DNA from: a virus
IMG/VR virus record: IMGVR_UViG_3300036782_000034
Location: 1-46,324 of that record
Length of the DNA stretch: 46,324 nucleotides
Strand: one strand, 5' to 3'
Numbering within the stretch: the first letter of the stretch is position 1; each line of letters opens with the position of its first letter. Position numbers and translations under genes: made by a program. This document shows, piece after piece, positions 4,128-43,446 of this stretch. Under the pieces are notes generated by a model. The model made no database searches. It was not told the DNA's origin and saw only the letters and a program-made list of their open reading frames with translations.

Positions 4128-4409
4128 CTACAGTCCTAAATGGCCCATGATCTTTCCTATGTTTTCGTCAAAGCCGCGTAAAATATCTACTCTTGTCGTA
4201 CCTTCATAGACATCAAAAGTAGGTAGTGTATTTGATTTTAGAAATTCCGTTAACTCATATTTGTATTTTGAATTTTTATCAACGTTTCTTTCTTTTAACA
4301 CAAGATTTTCTTTGATATGAGCAGGAAGGTTTTCAAGATGAACCTTCGCTCCTTTGCATTTACCACAATTTTCGCCAGTGTACATAATAATCACGATCTT
4401 AGTTGCCAT
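4128..4409 (-). CDS. Glutaredoxin/NrdH-like thiol redoxin
   Basis: 93 aa with N-terminal beta-strand + CGKC (CxxC) active-site pattern and thioredoxin-fold length. Confidence 0.7.
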   Translation of the reverse strand: MATKIVIIMYTGENCGKCKGAKVHLENLPAHIKENLVLKERNVDKNSKYKYELTEFLKSNTLPTFDVYEGTTRVDILRGFDENIGKIMGHLGL

Positions 4410-11681: not shown

Positions 11682-11870
11682 TTACACCGCTCCTTCCGAA
11701 TGATCGTGTAATAAATCCAAAGCCATTTCTATTAGTACTTCTAGATGTTCAGTTCTACTTGTAATACAAGGAAACGTCCCTTGTTCATTAGTTATGGTCC
11801 CAGGATAACGATCTCTTCTATCTGTAAACGTAGATTCTAAGATTTCAATCGCTTCTTTTAACTGACTCAT
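11682..11870 (-). CDS. Hypothetical protein (62 aa)
   Basis: ORF track. 4-nt overlap with the antirepressor gene. Confidence 0.55.
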   Translation of the reverse strand: MSQLKEAIEILESTFTDRRDRYPGTITNEQGTFPCITSRTEHLEVLIEMALDLLHDHSEGAV

Positions 11871-12595
11871 GCTGTAGCACTTCCTTTATTAAGCAGCTTG
11901 TCTGCTACACGAACCGCATCTTCTAGTTGATTTGTCATTGATAAGTACTGTGGTCTTGTTAGGTCTTTCAAACCATGTTTCTCTTTATATTTGGTAATTC
12001 GTAATTTCAAGTTAGTCTTGTATGCAGTGTTGAATGCATCTGTGAAAGCTCTCCATGCATTCGGAATGGTCATTTTCTCTTGTTGTGCATGTCGTCTAAT
12101 CATTTTGTTTAAGCGTTGCTGCAAGTCACCGATTGTGTCGATTCTGTCAATGTTATCTAATCGGTGATTCACTGTTGTTACTTGCTGTTCTAGATGAACC
12201 ATTCTTTTTTCACTTTCCATATTTTGTTGAGCTAACATATAGATCAACTCAGCTGGTGACTTCGCTTGTTGTTGGCGGAATCGTTTTTCTACTTCAATAA
12301 AGTATTTTCTGATTGCTCTACCAGCTTCATTGTTTTGTACCATCGCAATTTCTTTCGCTGTATCTATGGTTAGTAAATATTCTGTAGATGGTCTACCGTT
12401 TGTTTTACTCAAAAATGAGTAAAAGTCTTCGTTTTGTGCAAACCCATAATTGTTAATCAATCTAGAAATCCAATCGTTGAATCTTGTGTTAACTAACAAT
12501 TGTTCATGAAGTTCTCTTGCGTTTACTACTTTTTCGTTGTTTTCGTTTTGATAAACCGGAAGTATTTCATTTGCGATTACTTTTAATTGATTCAT
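11867..12595 (-). CDS. Phage antirepressor (AntA/ORF6N-like N-terminal domain)
   Basis: N-terminus LKVI..ILPVYQNENNEKVVNARELHEQL...FNDWI...YGF..NEDF is the typical antirepressor N-domain pattern. Second gene of the cro operon. Confidence 0.7.
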   Translation of the reverse strand: MNQLKVIANEILPVYQNENNEKVVNARELHEQLLVNTRFNDWISRLINNYGFAQNEDFYSFLSKTNGRPSTEYLLTIDTAKEIAMVQNNEAGRAIRKYFIEVEKRFRQQQAKSPAELIYMLAQQNMESEKRMVHLEQQVTTVNHRLDNIDRIDTIGDLQQRLNKMIRRHAQQEKMTIPNAWRAFTDAFNTAYKTNLKLRITKYKEKHGLKDLTRPQYLSMTNQLEDAVRVADKLLNKGSATA

Positions 12596-12615
12596 TTTCT
12601 TTCCTCCTTATTCGT

Positions 12616-12640
12616 TTTTTGAGACGTCTCTTTTTGAGAC
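12616..12640. promoter_or_regulatory. Repeated TTTTTGAGAC boxes around the palindrome gagacgtctc
   Basis: tttttgagac at 12616-12625 and 12631-12640. gagacgtctc is palindromic at 12621-12630. Related boxes occur at 12907-12922 and 12964-12973. Confidence 0.45.
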
Positions 12641-12660
12641 CTGCAAGGTAAAAAAAGAGA

Positions 12661-12858
12661 CTACTTTGTTAATTCATCAATAGTAACTTCATACAAACCA
12701 GCGAGTAAAGACAATCTATGTAAGTTAGGTTCACGCTTTCCTGTTTCTACTTGAGAATACGAGTTCCTGTTCGTGTAACCCATTGTTTCAGCTACTTCAA
12801 CCTGCGTGAAACCTTTAGAAAGTCTTAGCTCCCTAATCTTTTCCGTGTTTAATTTCAT
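12661..12858 (-). CDS. Cro-like XRE-family HTH regulator (65 aa)
   Basis: Classic HTH_3 pattern (LRLSKGFTQVEVAETMGYTNRNSYSQVETGKREP). Divergent from the cI-like gene. Confidence 0.8.
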   Translation of the reverse strand: MKLNTEKIRELRLSKGFTQVEVAETMGYTNRNSYSQVETGKREPNLHRLSLLAGLYEVTIDELTK

Positions 12859-13071
12859 TCGGTATCACCCTTTGTTCGTTTCGTTGATTTGAGTATAACA
12901 TAGGGAGTCTCTTTTTGAGAACCCCTAAATTTAAAAAAATAAAAATTTTTAAAAGTGTTGTCATTTTGAGAACAAATTTGTTAAATTTAAGATATAGGAA
13001 ATGTATTTATATAATTATTTTTAGTGTTAGTAAGTAAAAGTTACTAATAAATATTAAGGGGAATAAAAAGA
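12859..13071. promoter_or_regulatory. Divergent cro / cI-like control region with TTTTGAGA(A/C)C boxes
   Basis: AT-rich 213-bp intergenic region. Boxes gtctctttttgagaac (12907-12922) and ttttgagaac (12964-12973) repeat the 12626-12641 sequence. Confidence 0.6.
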
Positions 13072-13422
13072 ATGGACTACAAATTAATTAGTAGACGTGT
13101 TAAAGAGATAAGGACTGACATACTAAAACTTAGTCAAAGAGAATTCGCTGAAGCGTTAGGAATACAGAGCAGATCTGCTGTTTCTATGTGGGAGAATGAA
13201 GAAAGTACAAAATGCCCATCTAAAAAGATGAGCTTAGAAATCGCGAAGCTTGCTAATGTATCGGTTTCTTATGTATTAGGAGAATCTGACGAAAAGAATC
13301 CTGAATCAGTAGCTAAAGACGACTTAGAACAAGTAATGATAGATATACGTTCTAAAAACCCAGACAAACAAAAAGAACTAATTGAGATGATAAAACAACT
13401 AGTTAAAATATCAGGCGATTGA
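13072..13422 (+). CDS. cI-like XRE-family repressor (116 aa)
   Basis: N-terminal HTH_3 (LKLSQREFAEALGIQSRSAVSMWENEES). Divergent from the cro-like gene. AAGGGGAATAAAAAGA precedes the ATG. Confidence 0.8.
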   Translation: MDYKLISRRVKEIRTDILKLSQREFAEALGIQSRSAVSMWENEESTKCPSKKMSLEIAKLANVSVSYVLGESDEKNPESVAKDDLEQVMIDIRSKNPDKQKELIEMIKQLVKISGD

Positions 13423-13458
13423 TAGCATCAAATGCTACCGATCGCCTCTTTTATTTTT
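13413..13458 (+). terminator. Intrinsic terminator of the cI-like gene
   Basis: 16-nt arms 13413-13428 / 13432-13447 (one G-U, one mismatch) followed by cttttattttt. Confidence 0.6.
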
Positions 13459-13565
13459 AATAGCATCTCATAAGACTCTGCATCCCCATTTTGAGCCGCA
13501 TTAAAGATACCTTGTAAGTTATTTTCAATTTCTACCAATTCTTTCTCGATGTTAGTTTGTTCCAT
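13428..13565 (-). CDS. Small ORF downstream of the peptide gene, 45 aa (MEQTNIEKELVEIENNLQGIFNAAQNGDAESYEMLLKIKEAIGSI). Positional analog of aimX.
   Basis: Codon-by-codon hand translation. GGAGGA RBS 8 nt upstream. Ends 5 nt from the converging cI-like stop. Below the track cutoff. Confidence 0.45.
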   Translation of the reverse strand: MEQTNIEKELVEIENNLQGIFNAAQNGDAESYEMLLKIKEAIGSI

Positions 13566-13596
13566 CCCTAAATCCTCCAATATTCTCATAGTAGTT

Positions 13597-13612
13597 TGTG
13601 AATTAATTCACA
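13597..13612. promoter_or_regulatory. Perfect 16-bp palindrome TGTGAATTAATTCACA, candidate receptor (AimR-like) operator
   Basis: Read directly. Lies between the peptide-gene terminator and the 45-aa ORF, over a region with only weak -35/-10 matches. Confidence 0.5.
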
Positions 13613-13653
13613 TTCATTGAACTTTACTTCGTTTCTGATAAAAAGTTCAATAA

Positions 13654-13701
13654 CCCCAAAAATGAAGAATGACGTCTTCTGCAAGAGAAGACGTCATTCT
13701 T
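13654..13701 (-). terminator. Strong intrinsic terminator after the peptide gene
   Basis: 16-bp perfect stem (13665-13680 / 13686-13701), loop gcaag. On minus it is followed by CAUUUUUGGGG. Confidence 0.75.
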
Positions 13702-13715
13702 ATATATCTATTAAA

Positions 13716-13865
13716 TTAAATTCCTGTCCCAGGATCAGACATAAACATAATTGTATTTTGTGGTTCCTTAGCAACTTGTTTCGGTTGCTCTTTGTTGTCA
13801 GCAGGAGCGAATAAAAAACCGCCAGCTAACGCTACGCTTGTGATTAGCGATAGTACTTTTTTCAT
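13716..13865 (-). CDS. aimP: Secreted pro-peptide of the RRNPP/arbitrium-like system, 49 aa (MKKVLSLITSVALAGGFLFAPADNKEQPKQVAKEPQNTIMFMSDPGTGI)
   Basis: Codon-by-codon hand translation. The ATG lies 6 nt after the receptor stop. N-terminus is MKK + hydrophobic core + small residues (signal-peptide-like), followed by a polar linker and short C-terminal tail. Below the 60-aa track cutoff. Confidence 0.7.
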   Translation of the reverse strand: MKKVLSLITSVALAGGFLFAPADNKEQPKQVAKEPQNTIMFMSDPGTGI

Positions 13866-13871
13866 TTAGCA

Positions 13872-15029
13872 TCACCCAACTAAATTATAGCATTTTTGGG
13901 ACATTATGCCTAGGTTTTTCTTCGCCAAATACGAATAAAAAATATCGGAAGATCGCTCGAATAAATCCAAAGCATCGCTTAATATTTGTGGGTCATTCCC
14001 CTTCGCTATTCCTAGATAAGTTAAGCCAAAAGCACCTAGCTTCCCTTTAGTTTTCAATACCTCTTCTAAAATACTTATTGCTTTTTTTGCATTGCCTTTT
14101 TGTATTTCTAAATAAGCCTTTTCGACTTCATCCTTAGGTTCGATATTGTTCAGATCTACCTTCCAATGTATCTTCAAGAAGTCGACCGTATTCAATATCA
14201 TATTTTTCCGCTTCATCATTTGATTACCAGGACCATTCACTATAATGCTAGCGGCAGAGTTTAAATAACCTAACGATTTGTGATAATCCGTAAAAATATA
14301 CGATTCTCCTAGTACACCATACGCTGTTGCTTTAAAGATAGGGAATAACATGTCTGAGTTATCATCATTGATTATTCCATGGCATATACTTCTTAGTTTT
14401 TGGATTTCATTACATGTTAACAATCCATAAATAGTAGCTTCTTGTATTTTAAATTTTAAAAAGGCCTTAGCATAATCGTCTTCTAACTCTTCGACCTTCT
14501 CATGTAATTCTTCAGAAAGTCGAATCATCGACTTATAGTTTTTCTGGTCATACCTAATATGAAGAAGAACTATACCCTTGAGAATCTCAAATTCAACATT
14601 TTTTGACTTAATACCCTCTACTTTTTCTTTATAAACTTTTAATAAGCTATCTCCAGATAAATCACCTTTGTATCGCAAATATATTAATCTGCATACCGTT
14701 TCCCAATCATGTTTAATTGTTGATTCATTTAACAGCTCCGCTACAGTGTCTAATTCCCCGTGTGCTAGTAAATAATATACGGCTACCTTTTTATTACCCT
14801 GTCTCTTCAAGACGCTAGAATATTCGCGACAAAAACTCCTTCTCGCATTAATATCATCGGGATAAACTTCCTTTAAAATCACTCCGTATTTGTTAAAAAC
14901 GAGTTGATGTTTTCCTTTTAAGAATCTTGATAATGTCGCTCCATCAATATCTATCCTCTTCACGAGTTGGGTTCTATTGATATTCTTACTATTCATATCA
15001 TCAGATATTTTACTTAACACTTTTTGCAT
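13872..15029 (-). CDS. aimR: RRNPP-family peptide receptor/transcription regulator, AimR-like (385 aa, N-terminal HTH + TPR-like helical repeats)
   Basis: Start set at the ATG at 15029 (AAGGGGAG 7 nt upstream; the track start is a TTG). HTH-like INRTQLVKRIDIDGATLSRFLKG, then about 300 aa of helical repeat sequence. Size, architecture and the immediately downstream pro-peptide ORF match AimR-AimP organisation. Confidence 0.7.
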   Translation of the reverse strand: MQKVLSKISDDMNSKNINRTQLVKRIDIDGATLSRFLKGKHQLVFNKYGVILKEVYPDDINARRSFCREYSSVLKRQGNKKVAVYYLLAHGELDTVAELLNESTIKHDWETVCRLIYLRYKGDLSGDSLLKVYKEKVEGIKSKNVEFEILKGIVLLHIRYDQKNYKSMIRLSEELHEKVEELEDDYAKAFLKFKIQEATIYGLLTCNEIQKLRSICHGIINDDNSDMLFPIFKATAYGVLGESYIFTDYHKSLGYLNSAASIIVNGPGNQMMKRKNMILNTVDFLKIHWKVDLNNIEPKDEVEKAYLEIQKGNAKKAISILEEVLKTKGKLGAFGLTYLGIAKGNDPQILSDALDLFERSSDIFYSYLAKKNLGIMSQKCYNLVG

Positions 15030-15118
15030 AACTTTGCTCCCCTTTTTTCGGAACAAAAGACACGTTATACCCAAATTTTAACTTTTACAGGAAAACGCGT
15101 CACTACATTCAAGAGATG

Positions 15119-15127
15119 TGTTATAAT
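15119..15127 (+). promoter_or_regulatory. Extended -10 promoter element TGtTATAAT, divergent from the receptor gene
   Basis: tgttataat at 15119..15127. The same 9-mer occurs at 266..274. Confidence 0.45.
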
Positions 15128-15134
15128 TTTATGT

Positions 15135-15226
15135 AAGACTTGCAGTAAGTGTTTTCCCTACGGCATTAGGGAAAGCGGTACTATGGTGTTCGTTGCACCT
15201 TAGTACACGCTGTGAGTCTTTTTTAC
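15135..15226 (+). ncRNA. Candidate ~90-nt structured small RNA (three-helix junction ending in a U-tract)
   Basis: Outer helix 15135-15145 / 15210-15220 (two G-U pairs on plus only). Inner hairpins 15153-15159/15168-15174 and 15178-15188/15196-15206. Followed by tttttt. Starts about 8 nt after the -10. Confidence 0.4.
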
Positions 15227-15352
15227 GTCCGTTTTTAGTTATTATCATTTTAACACAAATTTCCCAAAATTCAGTCGTAGAGTTATCAGACTATTATTGA
15301 GAAAGTTGAGAAACCGCTGTGTAACAACGTTTCTCGAATTAAAATAATTTGA

Positions 15353-15368
15353 ATATGCAATTATGCAT
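15353..15368. promoter_or_regulatory. Operator-like inverted repeat ATATGCA-at-TATGCAT (TATGCA motif family)
   Basis: Read directly. Related palindromes at 15388..15397 and 16174..16191. Confidence 0.4.
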
Positions 15369-15387
15369 TTAGACGTTTGAAGAACCC

Positions 15388-15397
15388 ATATGCATAT
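15388..15397. promoter_or_regulatory. 10-bp palindrome ATATGCATAT (TATGCA motif family)
   Basis: Read directly. Confidence 0.4.
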
Positions 15398-15524
15398 TTT
15401 ACCACTAATTCAACCAAAAGAGAACATAGGTTCTTATATTTATTTTAGTTGAGATTAGAAATATATCAAAATCTTATAAATGACAATACATCTATCATTT
15501 GTAGTATATCGATATTTCTATAAC

Positions 15525-15530
15525 TATAAT
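15525..15530 (+). promoter_or_regulatory. -10 hexamer TATAAT placed 6 nt before the ATG of the second XRE gene (possible leaderless mRNA)
   Basis: tataat at 15525-15530, then gtcact, then the ATG at 15537. No Shine-Dalgarno is present. Confidence 0.35.
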
Positions 15531-15536
15531 GTCACT

Positions 15537-15881
15537 ATGAAAACTTTAGGTGAAACTTTAAAAAAACTTAGAAAAAGTCGTTCGTTAAGACAAGCTGATT
15601 TAGCTCATGAACTAAATCTCAGCAGAAGCCAGATCAACAATTATGAAAATGGTTTTTCTGAACCTGACCTAACGACAATGTTTCGTCTCGCCTCCTATTT
15701 CAATGTAACGTTAGACGTACTTACTGGACGTACTGACGTTATTGATGATGATAAGTTACATAATACTCTCTTAGGTGTTCAAAAGACGTATGGGGCGTTA
15801 TCTGAAAGCCAAAGAGAAAACTTTTGCAAACAACTTGATCATTATGTGAGATTCCTAGGCGAGAATAACGAAGTGCTGTGA
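15537..15881 (+). CDS. Second XRE-family HTH regulator (114 aa)
   Basis: HTH_3 pattern LRKSRSLRQADLAHELNLSRSQINNYENGFSEPD begins right after Met20 of track ORF 15480..15881. The upstream 19 codons look non-coding. Confidence 0.75.
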   Translation: MKTLGETLKKLRKSRSLRQADLAHELNLSRSQINNYENGFSEPDLTTMFRLASYFNVTLDVLTGRTDVIDDDKLHNTLLGVQKTYGALSESQRENFCKQLDHYVRFLGENNEVL

Positions 15882-15975
15882 TTCGGATGTTGTGCCTCTG
15901 TTGCTTTCATCATAAAAGAAAACTTTTCCAATATCTAGAGGTAAAATTTGACATAATTTTACCAATCTTACCATC

Positions 15976-15998
15976 GAGAGCAAACGCTCTCTTTTTTT
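15976..15998 (+). terminator. Intrinsic terminator after the second XRE gene
   Basis: gagagc-aaac-gctctc followed by T7. Confidence 0.7.
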
Positions 15999-16026
15999 GT
16001 ATATAGGGGGAACTATATACAAAAAA
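15993..16026. repeat. 13-bp perfect inverted repeat ttttttgtatata / tatatacaaaaaa
   Basis: Read directly. Loop gggggaac. Shares the T-run with the preceding terminator. Confidence 0.7.
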
Positions 16027-16135
16027 CACTGCAACCATAACGCTCAAGGCTTGTGCATTTGATTATATTTTATAACCAGCTATTCTGACGGAATAGAGGT
16101 AAAATGTTCTTGTTAAACCATAAAATAGTTGAAAA

Positions 16136-16164
16136 TTGACCGTTTTTGTTTAATTTAATGTAAT
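16136..16164 (+). promoter_or_regulatory. Sigma-A-type promoter TTGACC-17-TGTAAT
   Basis: ttgacc at 16136-16141, 17-nt spacer, tgtaat at 16159-16164. Confidence 0.55.
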
Positions 16165-16170
16165 CCTATT

Positions 16171-16373
16171 AAAATATGCAATATTGCATATCCATTAACT
16201 GTAATACGACCCTTATTTTGCTGATAACATGTTAGTTACAGATATGCTACGATACGCAAGTATGAACCGCTATTGCTAACGTTTAGTGGTCCATCATTCA
16301 CATGCTAGGAGCATAGTTTCCTAGATTGCGGTTTCATTCCGCAGCCCTTAACTATTCGTTGAGGGCTTTTTTT
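16171..16373 (+). promoter_or_regulatory. ~200-nt structured leader or short transcript ending in a terminator, 90 nt upstream of the 16464 ORF
   Basis: Hairpins accgcta/tagtggt (16266-16289), ctagga/tcctag (16305-16324) and tgcgg/ccgca (16327-16343). Terminator stem 16343-16352/16358-16367 (one G-U) followed by T7. Confidence 0.4.
16174..16191. promoter_or_regulatory. Perfect 18-bp palindrome ATATGCAATATTGCATAT at about +4 to +21 of the 16136 promoter (operator)
   Basis: Read directly. Same TATGCA half-site as at 15353 and 15388. Confidence 0.55.
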
Positions 16374-16463
16374 ATTTTCATTCGACAAAATACGACAAAA
16401 TAGTTGTAATTGAATTTGTTATGCTTGGGTTGAAATCTTACATTCTGGAGGAGACAAATAAAA

Positions 16464-17552
16464 ATGGGGAATAAAAACAAAGAGAAAAAACCTAGCGAGT
16501 CGCAACTTGCCCAACAAGCGATAGCGAATAAATATCAAACTTCACCTATTATCGTAGAAGCTAAGTTTAGTTCAACTGATCGTGGCTATGCCGCTGTAGA
16601 TAAAGATCACATTCAACTTTTCAAGTTCAATAAAGGGACACAAGACGTTTCTAGCGTCGGTACATACAACTTTGATGAATATGACACTGTTACTATTGAT
16701 AAATTCGCTGTTAAAGCTGTTATGGAGTTTAAAGGGATGAATAAAACGTTCGTATTTATGCCAATTCAACAAACAAACGATATTGAACGTTTAATCAAAA
16801 CGAACACTTCTATTCAAATCGATAAAGTAGAACGTAAATTACATAACAAAATATTAGGGTTCCGATCAAATACAAAGTGGAAAATGATTGTAGCAAGTGC
16901 TGTATATCTATTTATTGTAGTTGCTGCTGTTAGCGGGTTTATAGATAAGAAAGAAGAAAAGGTTGCCAGTTCACAAGTTTCTCAAACTAACAATGAACCA
17001 GCAAAAAAATCATCAGCATTAGATCATGCACCAAAAGAAACAGCCAGTAAGCCTAAAGATACAGCTCTAAAAATGGATGATGGCCGTAATGTAAACATGG
17101 AGATTTACAACAAATACAACGTGAAATATCCGTCTCTCGATCCAACTACAAAGGATAAGGATTCAATGGAACATTTTGAAAAGATGGCTGAGAAGTATAG
17201 CATGTCTGTACCAGAATACATTTCAAAAGAAAAAGAAATCGTTGCTGCTAATGTTCAAAAAGAAAAAGAGGCAAAACAAAAAGCTGATGAGGATAACAAG
17301 CAGCGTGTCGGAGCTAGTAAACCAACTATCTCAAAAGACGAGTTTGACAGAATCGAAAATGGTATGACATACGATCAAGTAAAAGAAATTATCGATAGTG
17401 ATGGCGAGGTTATGTCTGAATCTGGAGATAAAGGAACTGAATACTACACAATCATGTACATGTGGAAAGGTGAAGGCTCACCAGGAGCTAATGCTAATTT
17501 CATGTTCCAAGGTGGTAAGCTGAACAATAAAGCCCAGTTCGGATTGAAATAA
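16464..17552 (+). CDS. Single-pass membrane protein: cytoplasmic N-domain, TM helix (WKMIVASAVYLFIVVAAVSGFI), extracellular K/E-rich linker and a C-terminal small beta-rich domain (DUF3862-like)
   Basis: GGAGGAG RBS 10 nt upstream. One clear TM segment. The C-terminal pattern ISKDEFDRIENGMTYDQVKEIIDSDGEV...YMWKGEG resembles DUF3862 lipoprotein domains (by eye). Confidence 0.7.
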   Translation: MGNKNKEKKPSESQLAQQAIANKYQTSPIIVEAKFSSTDRGYAAVDKDHIQLFKFNKGTQDVSSVGTYNFDEYDTVTIDKFAVKAVMEFKGMNKTFVFMPIQQTNDIERLIKTNTSIQIDKVERKLHNKILGFRSNTKWKMIVASAVYLFIVVAAVSGFIDKKEEKVASSQVSQTNNEPAKKSSALDHAPKETASKPKDTALKMDDGRNVNMEIYNKYNVKYPSLDPTTKDKDSMEHFEKMAEKYSMSVPEYISKEKEIVAANVQKEKEAKQKADEDNKQRVGASKPTISKDEFDRIENGMTYDQVKEIIDSDGEVMSESGDKGTEYYTIMYMWKGEGSPGANANFMFQGGKLNNKAQFGLK

Positions 17553-43206: not shown

Positions 43207-43446
43207 TCAATCCCAAAATCTTTCTGCTGCTTTCTTACCTAAATAAGCGAATAAGCCTTTCACAACAATAGCTAATACCCATACTATCGAACTAATCGTA
43301 AACACTGTCATATAACTAACATCCAATTTAAAGATGAAACTAACAATCCACGCCAAACCTAGCCAAGTAGCTGACCACATTCCAAATGAAATAATAAGCA
43401 ATCCTAATACAGCAAAAGTAAATACTGCTCCTAATCCTTTCAACAT
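43207..43446 (-). CDS. Small integral membrane protein (79 aa, 2-3 TM helices)
   Basis: ORF track. AAGGAGGAG RBS. Strongly hydrophobic. Confidence 0.55.
   Translation of the reverse strand: MLKGLGAVFTFAVLGLLIISFGMWSATWLGLAWIVSFIFKLDVSYMTVFTISSIVWVLAIVVKGLFAYLGKKAAERFWD

Follow-up and report, generated by a model that had tools for sequence, protein, structure and literature searches.

A 49-codon reading frame beside an AimR receptor as the very probable aimP gene of an extended arbitrium module in a Bacillus cereus-group phage

What does a reading frame of only 49 codons encode, if it encodes anything at all, when it lies on the minus strand of a viral genome at positions 13716..13865, below the size limit of the open reading frame (ORF) track? 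The frame belongs to IMG/VR record IMGVR_UViG_3300036782_000034, which was analyzed over its entire length of 46,324 nucleotides (nt), referred to below as the window. A sequence-only reading had proposed a quorum-sensing pro-peptide of the Phr, PapR, NprX or AimP type. The answer reached here, with a high degree of confidence, is that the frame is aimP, the secreted-signal gene of an arbitrium phage-phage communication system; the same joint judgement makes the carrier a temperate, Waukesha92-like virus from the Bacillus cereus group, either a siphovirus or a phage-plasmid. The segment 12661..15029 is, as judged from its gene content and order, an extended arbitrium module, the name given to the five-gene arrangement aimR-aimP-aimX-aimC-aimL described in a recent preprint (Kabel et al. 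2025). The finding is correct but ordinary, as arbitrium systems are well known and no new kind of system is revealed.

The reading frame, its receptor and its relatives

Translation of the minus strand from the ATG at 13865 yields MKKVLSLITSVALAGGFLFAPADNKEQPKQVAKEPQNTIMFMSDPGTGI, followed by TAA, and reproduces exactly the product first proposed. An in-frame TAA (13866-13868) directly abuts this ATG on its 5' side, so that it is the sole possible start and the start codon is unambiguous. The window, at 36% GC, contains 163 ATG-initiated ORFs of 30-80 amino acids (aa), and the length of 49 codons has no significance by itself. A crude filter for the n-, h- and c-regions of a signal peptide was applied to these small ORFs; to pass it, an ORF needed basic residues at its N-terminus, a hydrophobic core free of charges over 12 residues or more, and a small-x-small site. 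The filter retained 3 of the 163: aimP, a protein with multiple transmembrane segments and an antisense ORF. A 79-aa ORF at 43207..43446 (minus strand), which displays several hydrophobic segments and satisfied the filter, may encode a small membrane protein such as a holin.

The hydropathy profile and the filter define a predicted signal peptide over codons 1-22 (13800..13865, minus strand), made of MKK and 19 uncharged residues with A-P-A at positions -3 to -1, in agreement with the secretion layout described beforehand. The signal peptide appears to be of the Sec type, with cleavage predicted between A22 and D23. A lipoprotein was ruled out, the product having no cysteine and therefore no lipobox.

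The protein matches family phrog_2682 of the PHROGs database (function unknown) with an E value of 1.5e-18. The frame had also been presented as unannotated, which holds for the earlier ORF track and fails for the public databases: an identical 49-aa protein is present in IMG and a one-residue variant is recorded as WP_187770571.1, both named 'hypothetical protein'. The same label is carried by all 24 clusters of the peptide family collected in a database survey, all of them from the B. cereus group and mostly located on contigs or plasmids of about 50 kb. The UniRef entry of a close homolog ending in ..YAEDPGTGI (P0021) is misnamed 'Phr family secreted Rap phosphatase inhibitor'.

The ATG of aimP is located 6 nt past the stop codon of a gene on the same strand (13872..15029, minus strand), which encodes a 385-aa protein with an N-terminal helix-turn-helix (HTH) and a TPR-like helical domain. 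This protein scores 122.4 bits with Pfam PF22871 AimR (cutoff 26.7) and 306.8 bits with the NCBIfam equivalog model NF038310 lysogeny_AimR (cutoff 70). Its AlphaFold2 model (28 homologs) is confident and all-helical, with a predicted local distance difference test (pLDDT) of 79.8 and a predicted template-modelling score (pTM) of 0.72. The top 16 matches returned by Foldseek from the PDB are all crystal structures of AimR (SPbeta, phi3T, Katmira33, ATCC13952), with template-modelling (TM) scores of 0.58-0.75 over the full length before a drop to about 0.3. Close homologs are already named 'AimR family lysis-lysogeny pheromone receptor' by NCBI. By curated models and predicted fold, the neighbour is unambiguously AimR. 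A sequence search of the receptor against the PDB returned only noise, which sets its lineage far apart from the clade 2 receptors characterised so far, and in the phage collection searched no AimR of any phage is more than 30% identical to it. No second AimR was found in the window. Since 99% of the roughly 9300 AimR homologs surveyed in a preprint are reported to have an adjacent aimP (10.1101/2025.11.23.689978), such a gene is to be expected beside this receptor. Kabel et al. define it as a short same-strand ORF at most 250 bp downstream of aimR, which is the position occupied by the 49-codon frame.

The conservation of the frame was assessed on 35 loci taken from GTDB genomes, IMG/VR and phage PfNC7401, whose AimR proteins are 27-100% identical to that of the window. 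In each of them, an ORF of 48-52 aa with a Sec-type leader starts 6 nt past the aimR stop or overlaps it. The aimP frame is open in all 35 loci and its length changes by whole codons only, while the other five frames are broken in many of them. The ORF listed at this place in the earlier track, on the plus strand opposite aimP (13617..13814), varies between 29 and 77 aa and is interrupted in many relatives; it is the shadow of aimP, as the sequence-only reading had held.

The ratio of non-synonymous to synonymous differences (pN/pS) was obtained from pairwise Nei-Gojobori counts within the PGTG clade, represented by 16 different nucleotide sequences; as the pairs are not independent, the values are to be taken as descriptive. 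It amounts to 0.36 for the whole of aimP, 0.34 for the signal peptide (codons 1-22), 0.19 for the linker (codons 23-37), 0.93 for the six pre-tail codons (38-43) and 0.20 for the DPGTGI tail (codons 44-49), where pS is 0.52. On these counts, aimP is under purifying selection.

The tail sorts with the receptor. Tails ending in ..DPGTGI accompany AimR proteins 65-100% identical to that of the window, ..GPGTGV (or ..GPGTGI) is found at 60-65%, ..VGPGGGMG at about 30% and ..VDPGGGMG at about 28% identity. The Mantel correlation of receptor identity with the identity of the last ten residues is 0.97, as compared to 0.52 with that of the leader. Part of the receptor-tail correlation is expected from the adjacency of the genes; the informative part is the contrast with the leader, which physically lies between aimR and the tail codons and yet tracks the receptor less closely. 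In locus L007 (IMGVR_UViG_2912838376_000001, 4165-4323), the receptor is 93% identical and the tail reads MSDPGTGI, with a different leader. The signal peptide of L007 (MKKVLALVTTLALAGALYVSPAK..) is of the type that accompanies the AimR clade of 28% identity. The union of such a leader with an MSDPGTGI tail suggests that leader and tail are exchanged independently. The signal-peptide architecture is retained where the leader sequence was replaced, as in L007 and the L023 group.

Conservation, selection and context, taken together, place aimP far beyond chance. Conservation of the ORF downstream of receptor homologs, its concentration at the C-terminus and co-variation with the receptor were the very checks advocated by the sequence-only reading, and each of them came out in its favor. 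The quorum-sensing pro-peptide that it proposed is thereby borne out, specifically as AimP since the receptor is AimR. What is shown here is a genuine gene whose product is built like a secreted pro-peptide, with a tail that varies in step with an authentic AimR, the whole forming part of a complete switch module.

Two other accounts of the frame have to be considered. The region could merely be the 5' leader of the aimX transcript, with an incidental frame and no functional product. The small size of the ORF, when 163 ATG ORFs of 30-80 aa occur by chance at this GC content, and the conservation of the DNA around its start as a regulatory element would both suit such a leader. An incidental frame would hardly remain open in every locus with whole-codon length changes while the five others are so often interrupted, nor show the pN/pS observed overall and on the tail at a pS of about 0.5; the signal-peptide architecture also survives the replacement of the leader and a conserved Shine-Dalgarno sequence is found at the right spacing. 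This account is considered exceedingly improbable.

The frame could alternatively encode the pro-peptide of another RRNPP-type system (Phr/Rap, PapR/PlcR or NprX/NprR). The four-part layout is common to all these pro-peptides, the UniRef name of homolog P0021 points to Phr, and PlcR and Rap structures are among the weak fold matches of the receptor. However, the adjacent receptor exceeds the cutoff of the AimR equivalog model more than fourfold and superposes on AimR at TM 0.7 as compared to 0.39-0.43 on Rap and PlcR. It measures 385 aa, as compared to about 285 aa for PlcR, and possesses an N-terminal HTH, a domain not known from Rap proteins; no match to the Rap family was found in the family-model scans (Pfam, NCBIfam) of the receptor. 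The locus itself, with aimX, aimC and aimL, belongs to the lysis-lysogeny switch of a phage, and an origin in another RRNPP system is given next to no credence. As individual candidates, a Rap-Phr pair was ruled out by the HTH and by a Rap TM score of only 0.39-0.41, and a PlcR-PapR or NprR-NprX pair by a PlcR TM score of 0.43 with E > 0.01 and by the curated model, which is that of AimR. An SPbeta-like clade 2 arbitrium system was likewise ruled out by the DPGTGI tail, which does not have the RGA/xGA ending of the clade 2 hexapeptides, an AimR identity of about 16% and the presence of aimX, aimC and aimL instead of sro/yop. Nothing contradicts the assignment of the frame as aimP.

The mature signal

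The mature signal is predicted to reside in FMSDPGTGI (codons 41-49, 13719..13745, minus strand), on the basis of the pN/pS of the tail, its sorting with receptor clades and an alignment anchored on [DE]PG. The invariant core DPGTGI corresponds to codons 44-49 (13719..13736, minus strand). For the B. cereus group, the passage of a 2025 review that cites a 2019 survey gives the signals EIKPGG (Wbeta) and MMSEPGGGGW (Waukesha92-like) (PMC11945551), and the arbitrium peptide of phage B83 reads ..MADPGGSVG (PMC6669507). The C-terminus of Waukesha92 AimP is ..KVAMMSEPGGGGW. The window tail shares the [DE]PG core with MMSEPGGGGW and ..ADPGGSVG, and PG with EIKPGG. The DPG motif had been called distinctive, which could not be upheld, [D/E/G]PG being a hallmark of the arbitrium peptides of the B. 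cereus group. In the anchored alignment, the counterpart of MMSEPGGGGW is FMSDPGTGI, 9 aa long, give or take one residue. By analogy, the mature signal is probably the longer form, approximately FMSDPGTGI, with 8-10 residues and a presumed N-terminal boundary. The string 'DPGTGI' was not found by a full-text literature search, the supplementary tables of Stokar-Avihail 2019 and Kabel et al. 2025 being outside that search, and within this scope the peptide and its receptor lineage are apparently unstudied.

The same aimP gene could also deliver the bare hexapeptide DPGTGI, the variable residues upstream being a disposable pro-region and the signal being common to all phages with an AimR 65-100% identical to that of the window. 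DPGTGI is indeed invariant in the loci concerned, the pN/pS of 0.93 in the pre-tail is compatible with relaxed constraint, and 6-mers serve SPbeta, phi3T and Wbeta. Beside receptors that are 91-99% identical, four pre-tails (FMS, YMS, KMS, YAE) coexist; N224S is the only fixed difference among these receptors, and no clustering was seen; the receptor of L007 groups with the YAE set despite its KMS pre-tail. Four pre-tails for a single fixed difference mean that the variable residues may go unrecognised and that DPGTGI alone could suffice for activity, which counts against the longer form. The comparison based on N224S offers too few data to support or exclude a specificity of the receptor for peptide dialects. 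The hexapeptide is harder to reconcile with the structurally closest characterised relative, the Waukesha92-like system, which has the same phage type and [DE]PG core and uses a 10-mer starting four residues before the P, or with EIKPGG of Wbeta, which still has three residues ahead of PG. The pre-tail, moreover, keeps a pattern of hydrophobic or aromatic followed by small or acidic residues over 20 or more variants. The bare hexapeptide is regarded as a serious but minority possibility, and the longer form, near FMSDPGTGI, is retained as the preferred one.

A further proposition, which we consider unlikely, is that the mature signal includes the fast-evolving pre-tail (FMS, YMS, KMS, YAE, LMY and others) so as to create partly private dialects. 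Should it be true, B. cereus-group phage-plasmids that are nearly identical (AimR 91-99%) would speak dialects that are in part their own, over a C-terminal anchor common to all, in parallel with clade 2, where variable positions 2-3 stand ahead of a conserved RGA. At the opposite extreme, a bare DPGTGI heard by receptors as divergent as 65% would mean broad cross-talk between phages.

Control elements, switch genes and proposed circuit

A promoter scan for extended -10 elements revealed a candidate aimP promoter and Shine-Dalgarno sequence inside the 3' end of aimR (13871..13912, minus strand). The promoter reads TAGGCA-17-TGcTATAAT (13912..13884, with TGcTATAAT at 13892..13884) and the Shine-Dalgarno sequence GGGTGAT (13877..13871). 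The string TGnTATAAT-N7-GGGTGATGCTAA-ATG is kept in the DNA even in the AimR clades of 28-30% identity, although aimR reads it in different frames across clades (KCYNLVG versus GIIYMGDAK, each followed by the stop); the constraint would therefore be regulatory and not coding. This conservation at the DNA level suggests that aimP may be transcribed from its own extended -10 promoter. An aimP promoter was shown experimentally in phi3T (PMC10769878).

An intrinsic terminator with a perfect 16-bp stem, a 5-nt loop and a T-run separates aimP from aimX (13665..13701, minus strand). Its RNA fold has an energy of -23 kcal/mol (z = -5.7), a stability attained by none of 200 shuffled sequences, and the hairpin occurs in every AimR clade, with differing stem sequences and compensating changes. 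In phi3T and SPbeta, the terminator 3' of aimP is the target of antitermination by AimR (PMC10769878).

About 13 nt past the terminator stem starts a candidate AimR operator, ATTGAACTTT-N16-AAAGTTCAAT (13616..13651, no strand assigned), a perfect 10-nt inverted repeat with a span of 36 bp. The repeat is unique in the window, with 0.01 occurrences expected by chance. Clade members whose AimR is at least 60% identical retain its core ATTGAAC..GTTCAAT, which the 28-30% clades lack. The known AimR operators are 6-bp inverted repeats placed 25 bp apart (37-bp span), 3' of aimP and its terminator (PMC6458997, PMC10769878). A second candidate, the palindrome TGTGAATTAATTCACA (13597..13612, no strand assigned), lies just 5' of the aimX ribosome-binding site and is also unique in the window, where it takes the form TGTGAA-N4-TTCACA. 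It seems to resemble the PlcR box TATGNAN4TNCATA. TGTGAA-N3/4-TTCACA is conserved in all AimR clades, Waukesha92 and PfNC7401 included. The presence of this all-clade palindrome only 3 nt from the long-spacer repeat tells against a firm designation of the latter as the operator. In the recognition helices of AimR, the scaffold is conserved across clades and the likely contact residues vary, and their comparison did not discriminate between the two candidates. An Rfam scan of 12000-16500 gave nothing above noise and thus no known small RNA or riboswitch.

Downstream of these elements, the aimX gene encodes a small antirepressor candidate of 45 aa when read from its second ATG (13428..13565, minus strand). 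The mechanical ORF starts at ATG 13589 and spans 13428..13589 (53 aa), of which residues 9-53 match profile positions 1-45 of 45 in phrog_7267 (E 7.8e-18). The product is 39% identical (E 3e-11) to Waukesha92 gp35, whose ORF lies at the aimX position. The second ATG (13565) is preceded by GGAGGA, while ATG 13589 is in frame with this conserved ATG in some loci only and coincides in part with a possible -10 element (TATGAG/TATGAA/TATAAA). The 45-aa form is probably the true AimX. In the extended arbitrium definition, aimX is an ORF of less than 75 aa on the same strand downstream of aimP, and aimX of the window is of this kind. In L036 (NZ_CP072772.1, plasmid pBC07-3), a 36-aa ORF at the aimX position (1396-1506) is misnamed 'DNA polymerase III subunit delta''.

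The same definition calls for a single-HTH repressor gene on the opposite strand and then a cro-like HTH gene on the aimR strand, and both are found. The former is aimC (13072..13422, plus strand), which encodes a 116-aa XRE-type HTH repressor, 81% identical to Waukesha92 gp34. The latter is aimL (12661..12858, minus strand), for a 65-aa cro-like HTH protein that is 94% identical to Waukesha92 gp33; both proteins were recognised by Pfam HTH_3. In Waukesha92, AimC represses P_aimL in reporter assays and antirepression by AimX was also demonstrated experimentally (Kabel et al. 2025, 10.1101/2025.11.23.689978). An Ant-type antirepressor gene, recognised by a match to phrog_373 (anti-repressor), follows downstream of aimL (11867..12595, minus strand). 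On the other side, divergent from aimR, 15480..15881 (plus strand) encodes a 133-aa XRE-type HTH protein, the third HTH regulator flanking the module; its counterpart in PfNC7401 is annotated 'prorepressor'.

By homology with characterised systems, the circuit may be pictured as follows. Transcription of aimP would start at the extended -10 promoter within the aimR 3' end, and its translation would rely on the GGGTGAT Shine-Dalgarno sequence, as their conservation in the DNA suggests. The 49-aa pre-pro-peptide, whose features are those of a Sec substrate, would be exported and presumably cut after A-P-A22. Extracellular proteases would trim the resulting 27-aa pro-peptide to a C-terminal oligopeptide containing DPGTGI, most likely, by analogy with MMSEPGGGGW, a product of 8-10 residues close to FMSDPGTGI. 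The host oligopeptide permease (Opp) would re-import this peptide, which would bind the TPR pocket of AimR, a step established for the family. Peptide-free AimR, bound to the inverted repeat past the aimP terminator, would allow read-through into aimX; the anatomy is visible in the window and the mechanism is borrowed from phi3T/SPbeta. AimX would inactivate the AimC repressor, with de-repression of aimL and of the lytic genes, as transferred from Waukesha92. Upon accumulation of the peptide, AimR would be inactivated, antitermination lost and transcription stopped at the terminator, AimX would disappear, AimC would repress, and lysogeny would be chosen or maintained.

Module exchange and relation to known systems

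A megablast search against phages matched the locus over 130 nt only (13768-13897), a segment that comprises the conserved junction and the leader and has 89% nucleotide identity with PfNC7401, despite an AimR of 30% identity and a different tail in that phage. This points to a conserved cassette of promoter, Shine-Dalgarno sequence and leader, inserted between two co-evolving specificity parts, the receptor body and the peptide tail. Compared to PfNC7401 in blocks of 60 nt, the window displays identities of 0.42-0.68 in the aimR body, 0.82-0.95 in the aimR 3' end and aimP leader, 0.53-0.65 in the region of the peptide tail, terminator and operator, and 0.85-0.98 in aimC-aimL. Plasmid matches of about 87% (e.g. 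pBC07-3, L036) cover only 13560..15100, a stretch that holds aimR and aimP and ends, past the intergenic elements, where aimX starts. From these block-wise identities and match limits, receptor body, tail, terminator and operator candidate travel together as a sensor module, which passes between phages with a common switch module despite the conserved junction-leader cassette in its middle. The comparison with Waukesha92 leads in the same direction: AimC and AimL are 81% and 94% identical but AimR only 27%, so that the sensor module (aimR, aimP and the operator candidate) has been swapped and the switch module retained.

Waukesha92, a phage of B. thuringiensis, resembles the window in many other respects. 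Its structural genes are about 85% identical at the nucleotide level (as are those of phiS58 and TP21T), the five-gene layout is identical, aimC and aimL have the same sizes (116 and 65 aa), AimX is 39% identical, AimP is a protein of 48-49 aa that begins with a Sec leader and ends in a [DE]PG-containing tail, and a terminator and inverted repeat separate aimP from aimX. Besides the receptor, the differences lie in the tail (MMSEPGGGGW versus FMSDPGTGI), in the repeat found at the corresponding place past the terminator (TTCGAAGTT..AACTTCGAA versus ATTGAAC..GTTCAAT in the window) and in the distance between aimR and aimP (46 nt versus 6 nt). Waukesha92 AimP (gp36; L035 3196-3342) carries within its chain a near-copy of its mature region, ..YTMSEPKVAMMSEPGGGGW, which brings to mind the tandem duplications described in pheromone pro-peptides of other RRNPPA systems.

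PfNC7401/PfIS075 (Cecivirus) and the IMG/VR relatives with ..GPGGGMG/..DPGGGMG tails share with the window a nearly identical aimP leader and aimR-aimP junction and resemble it closely across aimC-aimL (85-98% per block of 60 nt), but differ in AimR (28-30% identical), tail, terminator stem and post-terminator sequence. The clade 2 systems of phi3T and SPbeta are more distant. They share the AimR fold (TM 0.58-0.75), the order aimR, aimP promoter, aimP, terminator, long-spacer inverted repeat (37 versus 36 bp span) and aimX, and a mature signal at the C-terminus of a secreted pro-peptide; AimR bound to the inverted repeats antiterminates the transcript from the aimP promoter in these phages (PMC6458997, PMC10769878). 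They differ in an AimR of about 16% identity with no PDB match at the sequence level, in a hexapeptide of the form xxxRGA in place of DPGTGI, in MazEF/sro (yop) circuitry in place of the AimX/AimC/AimL antirepressor switch, and in the host, B. subtilis in place of the B. cereus group. With PlcR-PapR and Rap-Phr, quorum-sensing pairs of Bacillus from the RRNPP family, the window has in common a cytoplasmic TPR receptor beside a small gene that encodes a secreted pro-peptide, the C-terminal fragment of which returns to the cell; the receptor of the window is, in contrast, AimR by curated model and fold, and governs the lysis-lysogeny switch of a phage instead of host virulence or sporulation.

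As to annotation, the ORF at 13716..13865 becomes aimP and 12661..15029 an extended arbitrium lysis-lysogeny module, where public records give the peptide as 'hypothetical protein' and the aimX-like ORF is misnamed in some of them. The locus adds a peptide type (..DPGTGI) that is still uncharacterised, together with a receptor lineage that shares no more than 30% identity with any AimR in the phage collection searched. It moreover represents a natural module swap, in which this sensor is paired with AimC and AimL almost identical to those of the experimentally tractable Waukesha92. Such a swap would be convenient for studying the co-evolution of receptor, peptide and operator, as well as the length of the mature peptide, in the systems of the B. 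cereus group.

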